Origin: Candidatus Nomurabacteria bacterium
GTDB taxonomy: Bacteria > Patescibacteriota > Patescibacteriia > Magasanikbacterales > UBA922
Length of the DNA: 64,000 nt
Assembly (NCBI GenBank): GCA_020632445.1
Contig: JACKFN010000005.1
Location: 30,786-94,785 of the forward strand
Direction of reading: 5' to 3'
Shown here: piece after piece, positions 4,701 to 33,954 of the stretch
Layout: each line of letters opens with the position of its first letter
How positions within the stretch are numbered: the stretch's first letter is position 1
Position numbers and translations under genes: made by a program
Notes under the pieces: generated by a model
Database searches by the model: none
Told to the model about the DNA's origin: nothing
Seen by the model: only the letters and a program-made list of their open reading frames with translations

Positions 4701-5825
4701 CTATTGCCGTATAGGCATAACAAGGTACAAATAATCTTCTTTCCCCTTTCCGCGCATCATACAAGGCGCATCATGAGAATTCATCAAAAATTCCATTTCT
4801 TCACTATCAAGATTTGCCAATCCATCGAGGACGTATCTAAAGTTGAGCAAAATGGCGTTTTCCTCTCCGGCCACTTGCGCTTCCACTTGTGAAGAGTGCT
4901 CACCGGTTTGGCTGCTCATTGAAGCCACCATAACTGCAGACTCAGAAGGACTGAGCGTAAAATTCACTCCGTTTATACCCGTGCTGCTAAACAAACTGGC
5001 CGCTTTGATTTTCTTATGAAACGCATCCACACTCACAATCGCATGTGTTTTAAACTCTGTGGGGATTATTTGTGCATAATCTGGATAACTCCCAGATACC
5101 AGCCGACTCGTTATCTCAAAACTTTCATACCGTACCCCAATCTGATTGTCACTCACCCACATTCGCACTTGTGTTTCCTTTCCAGAATTTTTCACGCTTG
5201 AAAGGAGCCTTGCAACTTCCATTACTGTTTTGATTGGCAAAATACATTGGCGCACATCACTCCCCTGTGCCACCGAAACTTTCTTTTCCGCAAGACGGTA
5301 TGAATCAGTCGCAGCCATTACGAGTCCTTCATACCTGTCGGTAAAAAATCCACAGTACACCCCAGAAAGCTCTGGTCGAATGTCATTTTTGGCGGCGGCA
5401 ATTCCCACTCGTGTTAGGGCATCTGCAAATACGTCTACTAAAATGGTATATACAGAACCTTCTTCTGCTTCTGGAATAATTGGATAATCCTCTGAAGGGC
5501 TTCCCTTAATTTTGGTTGATGAGTCATTACAAGAAACCACCAATTCATTTTCCTCAACGGATATTTCAATTTGTTCATCAGATATGAGTGAAACAAAATC
5601 GTAAAGCGTTTTTGCCGGCACGGTAAATTTTCCCGCTATTTCCACCTTGGCACGCAGACTGCACTTTACCACCATTTCAAGATTGGTACTCACAAACTCT
5701 ACTCTAGATTCTGTTGCGTCAATCAAAACATTACTCAGTATTGGAAGATTGGACTGTTTACCAGCAAGTGGGGCAACTAAATTAAGTGCTCCTACAAGAT
5801 TTTCTTTCGTACAAACAAATTTCAT
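4701..5825 (-). CDS. dnaN: DNA polymerase III subunit beta (sliding clamp)
   Basis: 374 aa, MKFVCTKENLVGALNLVAPLAGKQSNLPILSNVLIDATESRVEFVSTNLEM..., three-domain clamp pattern; sits immediately downstream of dnaA as in most bacteria. Confidence 0.95.
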   Translation of the reverse strand: MKFVCTKENLVGALNLVAPLAGKQSNLPILSNVLIDATESRVEFVSTNLEMVVKCSLRAKVEIAGKFTVPAKTLYDFVSLISDEQIEISVEENELVVSCNDSSTKIKGSPSEDYPIIPEAEEGSVYTILVDVFADALTRVGIAAAKNDIRPELSGVYCGFFTDRYEGLVMAATDSYRLAEKKVSVAQGSDVRQCILPIKTVMEVARLLSSVKNSGKETQVRMWVSDNQIGVRYESFEITSRLVSGSYPDYAQIIPTEFKTHAIVSVDAFHKKIKAASLFSSTGINGVNFTLSPSESAVMVASMSSQTGEHSSQVEAQVAGEENAILLNFRYVLDGLANLDSEEMEFLMNSHDAPCMMRGKGKEDYLYLVMPIRQ

Positions 5826-6127
5826 ATGACTTCCTTCTTGAGGTGTTTATAACCCGTGAGGGTTTGTATTCTTTTTCTAAAAAAATATTAGTATTAGTAA
5901 TAGGCGTTGTGGACAGTGGGGATAACTTGAAATTTCTTGCTTATTTGAGAGCAAAAAAGCGTTTTTCCACATGCGTATAATGCGTGTGTGGAAACTCTCC
6001 CAACTGTGAACAATTTTTCTTCTCCATTTTTTCTTGTGGATAGGTATCGTCTTCCTACACAAGAAATCCCAATCTTTTATACACACCTATGCCCAGCTTT
6101 ATCCACGATAATGGGGATAAATTCAGA
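5826..6127. promoter_or_regulatory. Candidate oriC: dnaA-dnaN intergenic region with at least 6 DnaA-box-like 9-mers plus an AT-rich unwinding stretch
   Basis: Boxes within 1 mismatch of TTATCCACA or its complement: TGTGGACAG (5907-5915), TTTTCCACA (5964), TGTGGAAAC (5990), TGTGGATAG (6037), TTATCCACG (6099), GGGGATAAA (6113). AT-rich run TCTTTTTCTAAAAAAATATTAGTATTAGTAATA at 5869-5903. Confidence 0.6.
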
Positions 6128-7498: not shown

Positions 7499-7599
7499 AG
7501 TGGGGAAAATTAGGGAAAACAGAGGAAACTTCCCTCTGTAAGTGCATTGTAACATAATTATACACAAGAAAAAAACGCTGAGTATAGCGAAATGTGTAA

Positions 7600-7642
7600 C
7601 ACCTGTGGATAGACTGTGGATAATGTGGATAACTTTGAAAAC
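7600..7642. promoter_or_regulatory. Three tandem DnaA boxes upstream of dnaA (autoregulation/origin-associated)
   Basis: CCTGTGGATAGACTGTGGATAATGTGGATAAC holds TGTGGATAG plus two perfect TGTGGATAA (complement of TTATCCACA) about 105 bp upstream of the dnaA start. Confidence 0.7.
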
Positions 7643-30583: not shown

Positions 30584-31006
30584 TTGCGTCCGAGGGAAAA
30601 CATCATCCGCCGGCAATCATGGGGAGAGGTTGCTGCAAACCTCAGGAGGAGCCGAGTGGATATCCGTGAATGGTTGGTAGTGTTGATGGCTGCGGCCACA
30701 ACGTTTTTGGTCGCCGGTGGAGATTACTACTGGCGTCGAGATCGAAAGGTCATGGCCGCGCTATACAGCGCATTGGGAGTGTTCGCGTCAGCTGTCGTTG
30801 GGATCGGGCAAGCTCGAAACCAGGGACTGCAGATCCTGCCAATGTACATCCTCTTTTTCGCACTGGACATGTTTGTCTTCCTTGCGTTCTGGCGTCGCAT
30901 TGCGCACCGTCATTTCGCATGGATGGAAGCGTGCCGGTGGGGACACCGTAATCACACCCCTCTCGCCTCGGGCGCCCATCTCTCTGGTACCGGACCTGCT
31001 GCCTAA
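30584..31006 (+). CDS. Hypothetical 3-TM membrane protein encoded in a GC-rich island
   Basis: 140-aa ORF with three clear hydrophobic helices (LVVLMAAATTFLVAGG, VMAALYSALGVFASAVVGIG, ILPMYILFFALDMFVFLAFW); about 60% GC against an AT-rich background. Downstream TCCTCCCCACCCTTACTCC overlaps the yidD 3' end. Confidence 0.35.
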   Translation: MRPRENIIRRQSWGEVAANLRRSRVDIREWLVVLMAAATTFLVAGGDYYWRRDRKVMAALYSALGVFASAVVGIGQARNQGLQILPMYILFFALDMFVFLAFWRRIAHRHFAWMEACRWGHRNHTPLASGAHLSGTGPAA

Positions 31007-31029: not shown

Positions 31030-31269
31030 TCATGCAACGTCCTCCCCACCCTTACTCCATGGATTACAACGCAGTATTCTCCAGATCGTCTTGAGTGAGC
31101 CAATAAAGGCTCCATTTTTTTTTATGGATTCGATTGCGTATTGGCTACAGGTTGGATGAAATTTGCAGTATCCTTGTGGGAAGAACCGTCTCACCCAGCT
31201 ATGATCTGGTGAAAGGGTTTTTTGATAGACTATGATACAGCCGATCAAAAATTTTTGTAGGATATTCAT
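31030..31269 (-). CDS. yidD: Membrane protein insertion efficiency factor YidD
   Basis: 79 aa with the conserved CKFHPTCSQYAIESIKKNG and RILRCNPWSKGG motifs; directly downstream of rnpA. Confidence 0.85.
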   Translation of the reverse strand: MNILQKFLIGCIIVYQKTLSPDHSWVRRFFPQGYCKFHPTCSQYAIESIKKNGAFIGSLKTIWRILRCNPWSKGGEDVA

Positions 31270-31281
31270 AGCACGGATTTA

Positions 31282-31659
31282 CTACCTCAAAACTCGTGCA
31301 CGCGAAAGAGCACTTTTAATGCTTTTTTCAATCGCGGCATAATCAGACTCAAGTATTTCTTTCTTTGCCATAACAGCAATGAGGTATCCAGATTGTAAGA
31401 TATCTTTTTTAAGCATGAGGCGCACCACCTCACGCATCTGTCGCTTCTTTCTATTTCTCTCGACTGCTTTTTTGCTTACTTTCACACTGACCACAAAACC
31501 AATTAAAAGCGTATCACGGGTATATGCACGTCTTGGATATTTTTCAGGATCAATTTTCCAAACCTTGAGGGTTATGCACTGATCACCAATAAACCTGCCC
31601 TCATCAAAAAGGATCTGAAAATCTTTCATGTGTTTGAGACGGTTCTCTTTGGGAATCAT
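31282..31659 (-). CDS. rnpA: Ribonuclease P protein component
   Basis: 125 aa, basic, located between rpmH and yidD (the conserved rpmH-rnpA-yidD order); RNR-like basic motif KKAVERNRKKRQMRE. Confidence 0.85.
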   Translation of the reverse strand: MIPKENRLKHMKDFQILFDEGRFIGDQCITLKVWKIDPEKYPRRAYTRDTLLIGFVVSVKVSKKAVERNRKKRQMREVVRLMLKKDILQSGYLIAVMAKKEILESDYAAIEKSIKSALSRARVLR

Positions 31660-31690
31660 ATATGAGGATTATAGCATAAATGCTGTAAAC

Positions 31691-31719
31691 AAAAGAACTT
31701 CGCATGACGAAGTTCTTTT
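31691..31719 (-). terminator. Hairpin plus T-run between rpmH and rnpA (attenuator-type partial terminator)
   Basis: AAAAGAACTTCGcatgaCGAAGTTCTTTTT; 9-bp stem with A/T flanks. Confidence 0.5.
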
Positions 31720-31726
31720 TGAGAGT

Positions 31727-31903
31727 TTATCTGGTTTTTCGTGTGCGCTTTCCTGTCTTTTCGTCACTTACGGTAAGTTTGTGGCGTCCTTTTACACGTC
31801 GGCGCTTGAGTACGGCGCGTCCGTCTTTAGAAGACATTCTGGCACGAAACCCATGAGTTTTTGCTCTCTTACGCTTTTTTGGTTGATACGTTCTCTTTGG
31901 CAT
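31727..31903 (-). CDS. rpmH: 50S ribosomal protein L34
   Basis: Missing from the ORF track (below 60 aa). Reverse complement translates to [58 protein letters not shown]; matches the L34 consensus MKRTFQPS..KR.R.HGFRARM.T..GR.VL..RR.KGR..LTV. Confidence 0.8.
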
Positions 31904-31976
31904 AGAATTGCTGTTTTCCGCCTTTGGCGGATAGAATTTTCAAGTGCTCCAATAATACCTTAATTTCCCTTTTCTG

Positions 31977-32429
31977 TCAAGGCTTGGCTCTTTTTTCCTG
32001 TTGTAGTCCAAGAAAGATGAAAAATGCCCCGAAGGTAATGAGAATGTCGGCAATGTTGATAACAGAGGTAAAAAAGAGAAAGTAATCGGTGGTAAAGCCA
32101 AAAAGTATACGGTCGGCAAAGTTCGAGATGGCTCCTGAGACGACCCAAAACACTCCCAAAGTGGTCATAAAATTCGGATTGCTCAGCCCACGAAAGAACA
32201 CAAACAGAAACAAGAGAATAAAGGGAGTTAAGAGAAGGATGAGATAGGGCGGAAAGGGAAGACTAAAGGCTATACCGGTATTTTCGAAGTATTTCCACCC
32301 AAGCATTTCGTGAAATGTGGTCCAGGAAAATGCTTGGTTGGCTCGCGCCCAGTGTTTGAGGAATTGGTCAAGAGCAATAAAAAAACCGCCTAAAAGCGCA
32401 TAGCGAATTGGGCGGCTTAGATTTTTCAT
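31977..32429 (-). CDS. lspA: Lipoprotein signal peptidase (signal peptidase II)
   Basis: 150 aa, 4 TM; conserved ENTGIAFSL and ISNFADRI (catalytic Asp motifs). Confidence 0.85.
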   Translation of the reverse strand: MKNLSRPIRYALLGGFFIALDQFLKHWARANQAFSWTTFHEMLGWKYFENTGIAFSLPFPPYLILLLTPFILLFLFVFFRGLSNPNFMTTLGVFWVVSGAISNFADRILFGFTTDYFLFFTSVINIADILITFGAFFIFLGLQQEKRAKP

Positions 32430-32432
32430 AGA

Positions 32433-32801
32433 TTAAGCTTCTCCTGTGACTACTTTTTTGGCCTCTGCTGTGGTGCTTGATGTTGGTCTTGCACGTAGGC
32501 GCTCTTCTGAAATTTTCTCTCCGGTAAACTTACAGATACCATAAGTCCCGTCTGCCATACGTTTGAGTGCAGATTCAACATCCCGGAGTGATTTTTCGAG
32601 TCTGTCGACGAGCTGTCTATTGACCTCATCATCAGTTACTTCGTGAGCATTTTCTTCTTCAGAATCGCCGTATTCTACATGGTCGTGGATACGAGAAAGC
32701 TCATCTTCGAGTTTTTTCTGTTCGTTACTCAGAGCCTCAGACATTTCGTCGAGAAAGGCCTGGTCAAACAAGTCTTTTGTCTTCGCCATATGTTTTATCA
32801 T
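32433..32801 (-). CDS. DksA/TraR-family regulator-like protein (zinc-finger region degenerate, one Cys)
   Basis: Coiled-coil N-terminal region plus C-terminal MADGTYGICKFTGEKISEERLRARP resembling the DksA C4 finger region; may start at the internal ATG at 32789. Confidence 0.5.
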   Translation of the reverse strand: MIKHMAKTKDLFDQAFLDEMSEALSNEQKKLEDELSRIHDHVEYGDSEEENAHEVTDDEVNRQLVDRLEKSLRDVESALKRMADGTYGICKFTGEKISEERLRARPTSSTTAEAKKVVTGEA

Positions 32802-32884
32802 TATGCCAGTAGTATATCAGATATGGTGTGAAAATCAAGGCTCATGCCTTGCCTACTCTGGGTATAATTTTTTCAAATATAAAA

Positions 32885-33300
32885 GGCCCTGACGCCTTGG
32901 GTATAGAATTTGTGCGCGGGCCTTAGAAGCATCCGCCGGTGCCAGCTACCAACTGTCTGGTCGCATAAACGCTCAAACAGTTAGTAACCGGCAATCCATG
33001 CGGATTGCGGTTAATACATCTTCACCGCCTGCAGTGGTGTTGAAGCTCGACGACACGGGATAAACACGTGACGCATGATTGAGCAGCACCGACTCGGATC
33101 CTTTTTCCGCTCTTTTGGGGCGAGCTACCTATTTTCGCTTTTGTTTTTATTTTTGAGTCCTTCGGAATGCACATAGTGCACTCTGGGGCTTGTCCTACGA
33201 AGGGGTAAAAGAAGGATCCAAGGTAACTCAGGCAGACATAAGATGTAGACCTGTCCTCAGGAGAGCTCCTGGGTCAAGGTCTTGTAAAGATCAGATCAGC
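32885..33300 (-). ncRNA. Candidate structured non-coding RNA (about 410 nt, GC-rich) of unassigned family, ending in an intrinsic terminator on the minus strand
   Basis: About 415 bp at roughly 55% GC with no credible ORF. Local hairpins include CCGGCAATCC-atgc-GGATTGCGG. On the minus strand the 3' end GGCCCGCGCacaaattctatacccaaGGCGTCAGGGCC is followed by UUUU. No GGAAAGUCC (RNase P P4), tRNA-like T-arm/ACCA (tmRNA) or SRP domain-IV motif found. Confidence 0.35.
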
Positions 33301-33387
33301 ATTTGTTTGATCTTGCATATACTATACCATAAAAAACCGAAAAAGTCAATAGTGCCCATTTTTTCTCTTAAATTAGGAGCTTTTTGC

Positions 33388-33525
33388 TGTGGATAATACA
33401 TTCTGTTTGTATACACTAGTCTATACAAACAGAATTATTGATGGTTTTCTGGAAAATGTTATCCACAATTTATGGTGTTTTTCCACAGACTTATCCACAT
33501 CTTGTGGAAAATCAGTGGAAATGTG
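33388..33525. promoter_or_regulatory. Ectopic DnaA-box cluster (at least 7 boxes in about 140 bp)
   Basis: TGTGGATAA (33388), TTATCCACA (33449), TTTTCCACA (33480), TTATCCACA (33491), TGTGGAAAA (33503), AGTGGAAAT (33514), TGTGGAAAA (33522); bracketed by two copies of the P1 palindrome. Confidence 0.6.
33401..33434. repeat. P1 palindrome copy 1 (TTCTGTTTGTATACACTAGTCTATACAAACAGAA)
   Basis: 34-bp near-perfect palindrome, one central mismatch. Confidence 0.9.
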
Positions 33526-33536
33526 GAAAATTGACC

Positions 33537-33563
33537 CTGTTTGTATAGACTAGTGTATACAAA
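33537..33563. repeat. P1 palindrome copy 2 (CTGTTTGTATAGACTAGTGTATACAAA)
   Basis: Read directly. Confidence 0.9.
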
Positions 33564-33603
33564 TGGGGTATTATGGGGGAGTCATAGCAATGGAGGGCAA
33601 GAT

Positions 33604-33954
33604 ATGGCAGTCGTCCCAACATACTGGGTGTTGGAGGATGAGGTTCTCACGTTTATTTACTGCCTCATACCAGGGCATGATATGGGGTACGGGAGTCTGG
33701 GGCATCGCCTGGTCGTGGTGAAGGTCTTATACGAGCTCTACCTCGATCAGAGTGATCAGGTCGAGAACGTTAGGTTTTCGAGCACAGATGGTCTGCTAGC
33801 GGCTTTGTCGTGGCTTGTGGCAGACGGACACGTTGAGAAATTTGAGATTGAGCATGTCTGCGACTGGGTGTTCGGTTGTTTCTATGAAACTAACTTGGAG
33901 GACTCACCTCAGTCTCGAGGACCAGCGGTCCCTCGTACTTTTTTCCTTTTCTAA
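33604..33954 (+). CDS. Hypothetical protein (116 aa), moderately GC-rich
   Basis: GGAGGG Shine-Dalgarno 6 nt upstream of the ATG at 33604 (MAVVPTYWVLEDEV...). The TAA stop is followed by CTTTCTCCCACCTCCCTAATC. The track ORF starts inside the P1 repeat. Confidence 0.35.
   Translation: MAVVPTYWVLEDEVLTFIYCLIPGHDMGYGSLGHRLVVVKVLYELYLDQSDQVENVRFSSTDGLLAALSWLVADGHVEKFEIEHVCDWVFGCFYETNLEDSPQSRGPAVPRTFFLF

Follow-up and report, generated by a model that had tools for sequence, protein, structure and literature searches.

What is encoded between a DksA-like gene (32433-32789 or 32801, minus strand) and a cluster of DnaA boxes in this Candidatus Nomurabacteria contig, in an interval with few ORFs? 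The window, that is, the whole stretch of 64,000 nucleotides that was analysed, had received an initial annotation in which this interval was read as a large structured RNA on the minus strand, of unassigned family and with its own terminator. Our data agree with this reading in their transcription signals, conservation, compensatory changes and lack of a match in Rfam. Judged from sequence comparison, 33314-32881 (minus strand) probably encodes a large structured ncRNA of Magasanikbacteria-like CPR/Patescibacteria that had not been catalogued before. The general marks of a structured ncRNA gene are found together here: a predicted promoter and terminator, no conserved ORF, compensatory changes and conservation across species.

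The minus-strand terminator noted before proved to be real. A simple terminator scan returned AAGGCGTCAGGGCCTT+TTATATTT at 32898-32883 on the minus strand, which forms the inner portion of a conserved, longer 3′ hairpin (32881-32924) that carries a U-tail, and a T-run stands at the terminator position in 64 of 79 related loci. The matching promoter had been missed. Its −10 is kept across the alignment of the window family (A1, 4 sequences), and an equivalent promoter of at least 10/12 is found in 63 of the 79 related loci, 41 of these 63 with TTGACA. Promoter (33349-33321) and 3′ terminator together suggest a unit from about 33314 to 32881 (434 nt), close to the limits of 32885-33300 first given, and the two signals bracket the conserved body exactly. 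A GC content far above the surroundings had also been put forward. This was overstated, as GC is 0.507 in the RNA interval versus 0.441 in the window and 0.435-0.457 in the 2-kb flanks, and the contrast is mainly with the adjacent DnaA-box region (0.346); the argument from GC is thus weak, although the structured RNA that it was taken to indicate was the right conclusion. Coordinates of all features are collected in Table 1.

Table 1. Features of the RNA gene and its neighbourhood (positions in the window; helix numbers are those of alignment A1).
Feature	Position	Strand	Remarks
ncRNA primary transcript, predicted, ~434 nt	33314 to 32881	minus	5′ end from promoter, 3′ end from U-tail
Sigma-70-type promoter, predicted	33321-33349	minus	promoter scan, 10/12 match, near-consensus
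−35 element TTGACT	33349-33344	minus	17-nt spacer to −10
Extended −10 element TGgTATAGT	hexamer 33326-33321	minus	TG present
5′ hairpin AGAUCA/UGAUCU, then 5′ motif GAUCUUUACAAG	33281-33313	minus	helix 1
Hairpin P2	33248-33281	minus	always present, sequence variable; helix 2
Long-range helix P1, 5′ strand ACAUCUUAUGUCUGCCUG	33229-33246	minus	pairs with 33016-33031; helix 3
Helix PA, 5′ strand CUUGGAUCCUUCUUUU	33207-33222	minus	pairs with 33093-33108; helix 4
A-rich single strand CAAAAAUAAAAACAAAAGCGAAAAUAG	33129-33155	minus	unpaired in all folds
Small hairpin GCUCGCCCCAAAAGAGC within domain A	33109-33125	minus	helix 6
Helix PA, 3′ strand GGAAAAAGGAUCCGAG	33093-33108	minus	helix 4
Arm PB, GGUG-CU-GCUC ... 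GAGC-UUCAA-CACC	33036-33090	minus	hand-aligned members
Long-range helix P1, 3′ strand CAGGCGGUGAAGAUGU	33016-33031	minus	family consensus GCGGUAGAAGGG
Domain P3, closing helix GCAAUCCGC/GGCGGAUGC	32929-33008	minus	helices 8-10
3′ terminator domain AAGGCCCGCGC-[18-nt A/U-rich loop]-GCGUCAGGGCCUUUU	32881-32924	minus	helices 11-12
Conserved control region	33350-33567		upstream of RNA promoter
Motif CTCCTAATTTAAGAG	33365-33379		control region
DnaA box (predicted)	33388-33396		control region
First palindrome	33403-33432		control region
DnaA boxes (predicted)	33459-33467, 33479-33487, 33491-33499, 33503-33511, 33522-33530		control region
Second palindrome	33537-33564		control region
Separate promoter of dksA-like operon, TTGATT-16-TATACT	32811-32838	minus	downstream of RNA terminator
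DksA/TraR-family gene	32433-32789	minus	invariable downstream neighbour
lspA	31977-32429		after dksA-like gene
rpmH	31727-31903		after lspA
rnpA	31282-31659		after rpmH

On the minus strand the interval folds with an MFE of −163 kcal/mol (z = −7.6, with none of 100 shuffles equally good), versus z = −4.2 for the plus strand, and the homologue in locus L012 folds at z = −9.05. From 5′ to 3′, the family architecture consists of the 5′ motif (consensus ~(G)UUCUUUACAA), hairpin P2, a three-way junction closed by P1 and containing PA and PB, domain P3 and the terminator domain. Helix P1 is present in 29 of 29 curated members. Arm PA displays the A-rich single strand (~AAAACAAAAACAAAAG, 16-25 nt across the family), and no other sequence block of the family is conserved as strongly. 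Arm PB has an inner hairpin and an asymmetric internal loop that is conserved. The closing helix of P3 surrounds a 60-nt extended hairpin (32938-32997). In the folds and in the consensus structures, the 5′ and 3′ ends of the RNA are not paired together and both fold locally, and the 5′ tail shows no complementarity to the stretch before the terminator. A P4-like pairing of AAGGAUCCG with CGGAUGCUU, seen by eye, was dropped because it competes with the better-supported PA and is not kept in relatives.

Homologues occupy the same position on the same strand, directly upstream of dksA-lspA. Full-length nhmmer matches were obtained upstream of dksA in relatives with DksA identities of 90%, 68% and 61%, and iterative nhmmer seeded from the other subfamily, a procedure that may drift on A-rich sequence, recovered 53 of 84 distinct upstream regions, the window included at E = 1e-22. 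Among the 31 loci missed by the profile, divergent copies are present in most, recognised by eye only, and several have the same layout with PB and P1 motifs. Scanning of the loci with the family HMM showed the RNA to be single-copy and always on the dksA strand; in the window it gives one copy (33209-32872, minus). Lengths in the family range from 300 to 470 nt. The covariance model R1 with default filters had no match outside its own subfamily save a weak one in L072 (E = 0.11); this model was built on the core of subfamily 2, with 120 positions and 26 pairs, and is too narrow. The case for homology between subfamilies is therefore built on profile HMMs, synteny and a common architecture. 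A metagenome scan with the DksA of the window as the sole protein query yielded 3 distant loci only.

Comparative alignment, proposed at the outset as a check for covariation, gave compensatory changes in two independent alignments, A1 and that of the second subfamily (A4, 11 sequences). For the 85 pairs of A1, 89.1% of cells are paired versus 38-45% in slid controls, and double changes occur at 18 pairs versus 3-8. For the 67 pairs of A4, the corresponding values are 93.8% versus 34-48%, and 23 pairs versus 5-11. Covarying pairs of hairpin P2 are found in A1 and are also visible in A4. In PA, GGAUCC/GGAUCC of the window is replaced by GGACUC/GAGUCC in L005, with 94.6% of cells paired. One closing pair of P3 takes all four Watson-Crick types, the counterpart of P3 in subfamily 2 (helix 6) is 97% paired, and the counterpart of the terminator domain (helix 7) shows double changes at 8 of 13 pairs. 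Because MAFFT across subfamilies mis-registers helices, pair counts across the family were done on hand-parsed segments; the alignments of P1 and PB come from manual work or duplex prediction and lean towards structure. With this reservation, P1 strands pair better with their cognate than with non-cognate partners (permutation p < 5e-5), and in 27 hand-aligned members 95% of PB cells are paired versus 75% (maximum 83%) with shuffled partners, none of 2000 shuffles being as high. Each of the middle pairs of PB occurs as 3-5 different canonical types; at the fourth outer pair, 12 members have A-U and 9 have G-C. G-U cells outnumber A-C cells by 45 to 8 and 67 to 10, which favours the minus strand, an asymmetry that is partly built in since the structures were predicted on that strand. 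By these alignments, the sequence is evolving so as to preserve a defined fold.

Could the interval instead be a decayed protein-coding gene, or encode one or more small proteins? Short ORFs do exist: with ATG, GTG or TTG as start, the longest one on the RNA strand has 50 aa (33022-33174, minus) and another has 38 aa, and the longest stop-free frame extends over 83 aa. However, every frame holds 3-8 stops, no open frame of the interval matches Pfam at E ≤ 1, indel runs relative to L001 are 1, 2, 1, 2, 1, 1 and 1 nt, and those relative to L005 are mostly not multiples of three. A 47-codon ORF of L013 was rejected as coding, as inspection by eye placed it in a different frame in L012. A coding origin is therefore extremely unlikely, and the first impression that no credible ORF is present holds. 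In the initial annotation the size was taken to suit tmRNA or RNase P RNA, and the RNA was read as either divergent or a different one; our searches favour a different RNA. Covariance models of Rfam 15 (4227 families) did not match the RNA when the window was searched at gathering score or five diverse members of the family at E ≤ 1, and at E ≤ 10 on 32700-33650 (951 nt) they gave nothing beyond miRNA and snoRNA matches at chance level; that covariance-model check, recommended beforehand, thus returned no known family. Most of the chance-level matches fell over the palindromes of the DnaA-box region. The RNaseP_bact_a/b models were negative at each of these three settings, 6S gave no Rfam match at E ≤ 10, SRP had no Rfam match and an empty domain IV motif scan inside the RNA, Rfam riboswitches did not match, and OLE, GOLLD, ROOL, HEARO, raiA and the other Rfam 15 models did not match the RNA either. 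A tmRNA is excluded by ARAGORN, which found no tmRNA and no tRNA-like domain in the window. In L050, a related CPR locus, Rfam scores a canonical tmRNA at 116.8 bits, so that the tmRNA model works in this group. The earlier failure to find motifs of RNase P, tmRNA and SRP by eye is in this way confirmed by covariance models, and the RNA is not tmRNA, SRP, 6S or any Rfam riboswitch, and very probably not RNase P. There would remain an extremely divergent housekeeping RNA missed by Rfam, among which RNase P alone has the right size. An rnpB gene would be expected to have a length of 300-470 nt, a fold of several domains, a strong promoter and an almost universal distribution in the lineage, as this one does; rnpA is present, and the gene in the window family lies 1.2 kb upstream of rpmH-rnpA. 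Moreover, Rfam found no canonical copy in the ~280 kb of CPR sequence scanned, although none is expected in so small a sample, which covers ~12 kb per related genome. Against this stand the failure of the RNaseP_bact_a/b models even at permissive thresholds and the absence of CR-I (GGAAAGUCC; also given as GAGGAAAGUCC) and CR-V (ACAGNAANNNGGCUUA) from every RNA copy in a pattern scan with up to 2 mismatches, the conserved blocks being instead the A-rich strand, GGUR...YACC and GCGGUAGAAGGG. In addition, the unpaired ends leave no RNase P-type P1, no P4-type pseudoknot was found in folds or consensus structures, and in the second subfamily the gene is no longer linked to rnpA. We consider this explanation very improbable. 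In a motif scan of ~1 Mb of loci, L080 gave a string resembling CR-V and L037, outside the RNA, one resembling SRP domain IV; by Rfam, they are not RNase P and not SRP, respectively.

Position raises two further explanations. In one, the RNA would be a cis-acting leader (riboswitch or attenuator) of dksA-lspA(-rpmH-rnpA), which would sense a ligand or protein and whose 3′ hairpin would decide on reading into dksA. In all loci examined, dksA follows directly after the RNA on the same strand, and the intrinsic terminator of the RNA ends 50-90 nt ahead of the dksA start. However, dksA has a predicted promoter of its own between terminator and start codon, and 65 of 79 loci have one of at least 9/12 in this zone. 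The terminator has a long, GC-rich stem, a tail of 4-9 U and a loop that is conserved, as in the 3′ domain of stable RNAs; and a length of 300-470 nt is far above known riboswitch size. Together with the lack of a riboswitch match in Rfam, and with no alternative antiterminator pairing noticed, this makes a leader improbable. In the other, the conserved item would be a DNA element, datA/DARS-like or a remnant sub-origin beside rpmH, and the transcript incidental. Directly next to the RNA lie the box triplet, two palindromes and an AT-rich stretch, all conserved to the same degree as the RNA, and the rpmH side of oriC bears DnaA boxes in many bacteria. Yet the boxes end upstream of the RNA promoter, with none in the 434-nt body, which is flanked exactly by promoter and terminator; substitutions in this body preserve base pairs, many of them G-U, which the opposite strand would show as A-C. 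The flip in GC skew is at dnaA/dnaN (~6 kb) and not at 33.4 kb, which places oriC 27 kb from the boxes, and on this ground these were rejected as the origin. A DNA element with an incidental transcript is accordingly a highly unlikely explanation.

A structured, stand-alone ncRNA remains the preferred reading, and its gene is always preceded by the conserved DnaA-box control region. The proximity to DnaA boxes, pointed out in the initial annotation, is conserved across the family: upstream of dksA there are 2.87 DnaA boxes per 900 nt, versus 0.27 in coding DNA of the same loci, a tenfold difference, and the order of palindrome, box triplet (spacing 12 and 20) and palindrome recurs in both subfamilies. 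The palindromes read TGTATAC...GTATACA. The vicinity of rnpA, also pointed out, holds in the window (1.2 kb) and is not a conserved feature, since rpmH-rnpA no longer lies next to the RNA gene in the second subfamily; it is the proximity of RNA and dksA that is conserved. A conserved divergent partner gene was considered and rejected, as the genes beyond the boxes belong to at least five unrelated families.

Bacterial ncRNAs above ~300 nt with conserved multi-domain folds are rare. To our knowledge, those that are understood are nearly all ribozymes or essential ribonucleoprotein cores (rRNAs, RNase P, tmRNA, group I/II introns), and the few orphans, OLE, GOLLD, ROOL and raiA, each opened a line of research. 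The raiA motif RNA of Firmicutes and Actinobacteria is a structured ncRNA that has a promoter and terminator of its own and habitually lies just upstream of the gene of a global stress or growth regulator, from which it is transcribed separately. The present RNA resembles it in being structured, in its own predicted signals and in its site before a regulator gene, but it has no Rfam match, is about twice as long, differs in architecture and phylum, and has the DnaA-box control region. OLE, GOLLD and ROOL (580-800 nt) are lineage-restricted, multi-domain RNAs that comparative genomics revealed before a function was known for any of them; OLE is active as a ribonucleoprotein, and GOLLD and ROOL are often phage-associated. 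Our RNA is likewise lineage-restricted, multi-domain and longer than 300 nt, whereas covariance models give no match and it lies in a conserved neighbourhood of core genes. It is comparable with rnpB in the size, fold, promoter strength, distribution and distance to rnpA discussed above, and is set apart from it by the missing model match and CR-I/CR-V, the unpaired ends and the unconserved rnpA linkage. 6S is an unbranched rod of ~180 nt with a central bubble and paired ends; 6S and Ms1 bind RNA polymerase and are abundant, stand-alone RNAs. By analogy, a role related to RNA polymerase is conceivable from the adjacency to dksA, which encodes an RNA-polymerase-binding factor, although this RNA is branched and two-domain, is 300-470 nt long and has no Rfam match to 6S. 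A literature search on CPR, Patescibacteria, Magasanikbacteria and Parcubacteria for ncRNA, RNase P or DnaA boxes found nothing relevant.

We suppose that the RNA would be abundant, stable and trans-acting rather than a dksA leader, and that its synthesis may respond to DnaA occupancy of the upstream boxes. At the level of a guess, and a tentative one, the RNA could serve as a ribonucleoprotein core that offers its A-rich strand and internal loops to ligands, and would tie replication status (through DnaA) to growth or transcription control (through DksA). In a wider form that we hold with similarly little confidence, it would represent a new class of large functional RNA, either ribozyme or ribonucleoprotein core, gated by DnaA by way of the conserved box triplet and acting with DksA to couple replication to growth control in CPR. 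If true, this would be the first RNA output of a replication-initiator regulon, in bacteria with an otherwise minimal regulatory repertoire. The wiring to DnaA boxes and dksA suggests in any case a testable link from replication initiation to transcription or growth control. The RNA appears conserved across a CPR lineage of phylum level that is not yet cultivable on its own, and a further class of large RNA would give a concrete handle on its poorly known physiology. Annotation pipelines meanwhile leave this large, lineage-wide gene unmarked in hundreds of MAGs.

The control region can be compared with datA and DARS of E. coli and the DBCs of B. subtilis, in that consensus DnaA boxes lie away from the origin defined by skew and their arrangement is conserved. 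We know of no datA, DARS, DBC or DnaA-regulated promoter that is coupled to a large structured RNA gene. Unlike in those elements, the boxes here are flanked by two palindromes of 22-30 bp.

Our computational analysis shows a conserved, single-copy and non-coding unit, bracketed by a predicted promoter and a terminator, in the interval that separates a DksA/TraR-family gene from a DnaA-box cluster. The near-consensus promoter (TTGACT-17-TGgTATAGT) is directed into the region, and a hairpin with a U-tail ends the unit on the minus strand, as the initial annotation had proposed; the positions of the two signals predict a primary transcript of ~434 nt. A second predicted promoter (TTGATT-16-TATACT), just downstream of the RNA, serves dksA. 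The right flank of the RNA comprises the DnaA boxes, an unannotated small ORF and a gene resembling ComM/Mg-chelatase.

Features of the RNA locus and of the dnaN region (window coordinates)
Feature	Position	Strand	Remark
dnaN	4701–5825	minus	
ORF, presumably dnaA	6128–8092	minus	by position and flanking DnaA boxes
DnaA-box clusters near dnaN	5917–6120; 7558–7632		
140-aa ORF	30584–31006		GC 0.55–0.59, highest stretch nearby
yidD, rnpA, rpmH, lspA, dksA (in order)	31030–32801	minus	left of the RNA
DksA-like protein	32433–32789	minus	
dksA promoter	32838–32811		predicted
RNA terminator	~32881	minus	hairpin and U-tail
RNA primary transcript	33314–32881	minus	predicted
RNA promoter	33349–33321	minus	predicted
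DnaA-box cluster	33350–33567		
Further motif CTCCTAATTTAAGAG	33365–33379		nearer promoter; TTTTAGCTAAAATAAGCC there in most relatives
Two near-identical 28–30-bp palindromes (cTGTTTGTATAcACTAGTcTATACAAAcag)	33403–33432; 33537–33564		flank DnaA-box triplet
117-aa ORF	33601–33954	plus	divergently oriented

DksA homologues place the host among CPR/Patescibacteria, their source names being Nomurabacteria and Magasanikbacteria. In each of the contigs whose DksA is 90%, 68% and 61% identical, a full-length match to the RNA immediately precedes dksA and shares its strand. More distant genomes (DksA 50–60% identical) have lost the rpmH–rnpA linkage and retain a gap of ~950 nt upstream of dksA–lspA, which holds a shorter RNA of ~320 nt with the same layout of strong promoter, structured body (z = −9.05) and terminator. 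Scanning by DksA alignment, with one genome per species, gave 80 loci, mostly from Magasanikbacteria MAGs. Iterative nhmmer, seeded from the short subfamily only, reached convergence with 53 of the 84 distinct upstream regions, the window RNA among them at E = 1e-22. The family HMM matched once per locus, always upstream of dksA and on its strand; its matches on the reverse strand come from the long palindromic hairpin within that RNA copy. In most loci missed by the profile, a T-run and a second promoter accompany a strong promoter ~430 nt before dksA, and those whose sequences were read by eye carry the same PB and P1 motifs (an arm and a long-range helix of the predicted fold). A covariance model built on one subfamily did not generalise to other subfamilies. 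Among the 79 full-length upstream regions, a promoter of at least 10/12 stands in the right zone in 63 (41 with TTGACA), a T-run is present in 64 and the dksA promoter in 65.

The RNA sequence is constrained to maintain a specific multi-domain fold. The minus strand folds at −163 kcal/mol (z = −7.6, plus strand z = −4.2), and about 35 members folded individually gave one common architecture: a 5′ motif, about GUUCUUUACAA; hairpin P2; helix P1 (family consensus CCCUUUUUACUGC / GCGGUAGAAAGGG, window CAUCUUAUGUCUGCCUG / CAGGCGGUGAAGAUG), which closes a three-way junction; arm PA with an unpaired A-rich strand, about AAAACAAAAACAAAAG, the best-conserved block of the family; arm PB (GGUR-n-5 bp ... 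5 bp-nnnn-YACC), whose asymmetric internal loop is conserved; a second domain, P3, in which a closing helix encloses a long hairpin; and the terminator hairpin, which has a conserved A/U-rich loop as well as an inner helix. Comparative alignment revealed compensatory pairs in both subfamilies. For the window's own subfamily (4 sequences), RNAalifold gave 85 pairs, with 89.1% of cells paired versus 38–45% with slid partners and 18 pairs changed on both sides versus 3–8; for cells paired, double-change pairs or cells, and covariation score, at most 1 of 500 shuffles attained the real value, and pair-type diversity was weaker (3/500). The short subfamily (11 sequences) gave 67 pairs, 93.8% paired versus 34–48%, and 23 double-change pairs versus 5–11. 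P1 forms in 29/29 curated members, and pairing is stronger between its cognate strands than between non-cognate ones (−15.1 versus −12.5 kcal/mol; permutation p < 5e-5). PB was parsed by hand in 27 members: 95% of its cells pair, compared with 75% (maximum 83%) when partners are shuffled. The middle pairs take 3–5 canonical types each, and at the fourth outer pair 12 members have A-U and 9 have G-C. Cross-subfamily alignments were partly hand-made. G-U cells are more frequent than A-C cells (45 versus 8 and 67 versus 10), which fits transcription of the modelled strand, although the way in which the structures were obtained partly biases this measure.

This RNA matches no known family. Rfam 15 at gathering score found three tRNAs only in the 64-kb window, and at E ≤ 10 no RNase P, tmRNA, SRP, 6S, riboswitch or large-orphan match in 951 nt around the RNA; five diverse relatives at E ≤ 1 likewise matched no known family, and ARAGORN did not find a tmRNA. 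Rfam models do work in this group, as they recognise a canonical tmRNA in a related CPR locus. The covariance-model searches thus bore out the lack of RNase P, tmRNA and SRP hallmarks noticed earlier. The RNA contains neither RNase P CR-I/CR-V nor SRP domain IV strings. A hyper-divergent RNase P RNA is very unlikely beside a new structured RNA, as every hallmark examined fails. Even less probable is a decayed pseudogene or small protein, because a coding signal was not found: as initially judged, 32881–33314 holds no credible ORF (longest ATG/GTG/TTG ORF on the RNA strand, 50 aa; 3–8 stops in every frame), and its open frames gave no Pfam match at E ≤ 1. GC content, described at first as far above the surroundings, is modestly raised (0.507 versus 0.441 in the window), and stands out chiefly against the AT-rich DnaA-box region (0.346). 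We found no prior description of the RNA in a literature search of incomplete coverage, in which absence is not proof.

Conservation could also reflect an element acting at the DNA level, which we consider highly improbable relative to a structured RNA, because substitutions keep RNA pairs and the DnaA boxes end at the promoter. A cis-acting leader of dksA is unlikely, though less so, and the second promoter speaks against it. The separate dksA promoter, the near-consensus RNA promoter and the strong terminator inside the conserved fold suggest that the RNA is probably independent, abundant and trans-acting.

The DnaA-box cluster is not a stray, and its whole arrangement is conserved in the family. 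Scored as TTATCCACA with up to 1 mismatch, boxes occur at a mean of 2.87 per 900 nt in the region upstream of dksA, compared with 0.27 in the coding DNA of these loci. At least three are present in 48 of 79 loci, and 27 carry an exact same-orientation triplet with spacing of 12 and 20 nt. The order in both subfamilies is palindrome, TGTGGATAA-n3-TGTGGAnAA-n11-TGTGGATAA, palindrome, AT-rich 60–80 bp with a further motif, and promoter. The gene on the far side of the boxes belongs to at least five unrelated families among genomes, indicating that their conserved partner is the RNA–dksA side. GC skew changes sign at ~6 kb, not at 33.4 kb, which places oriC near dnaN, 27 kb from the RNA; together with the box cluster near dnaN, this marks the RNA-side cluster as a predicted second conserved DnaA-binding site, not an origin. 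Transcription of the RNA probably responds to DnaA, and we may guess at a ribonucleoprotein core, or at a regulator through which DksA-type growth control is tied to the status of DnaA. Replication meets transcription of the RNA gene and of the rpmH operon head-on.

Several side observations concern this and related loci. The DksA-like protein keeps one of four zinc-finger cysteines (CKFT...TTAEA; family consensus CxxC...CxxC) and resembles zinc-independent DksA2-type paralogues. The canonical tmRNA (116.8 bits) lies at 2051–2440 of an Uhrbacteria contig (L050), ~3.5 kb upstream of dksA, in a locus that seems to be without the new RNA. Two RNase P/SRP look-alike strings elsewhere in the loci were false. 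On a related Magasanikbacteria contig (L013, 3457–3514 minus), a sub-threshold type III hammerhead ribozyme match (36.9 bits, gathering 48.5; E = 2e-4) lies ~1 kb upstream of that genome's RNA copy. The 140-aa ORF has no Pfam match, a 141-aa gene is called at the equivalent position in relatives, and the stretch is probably a small membrane protein, not RNA. The 117-aa ORF, also without Pfam match, is kept in the closest relatives only (L001, L005), and other genomes have unrelated genes there.
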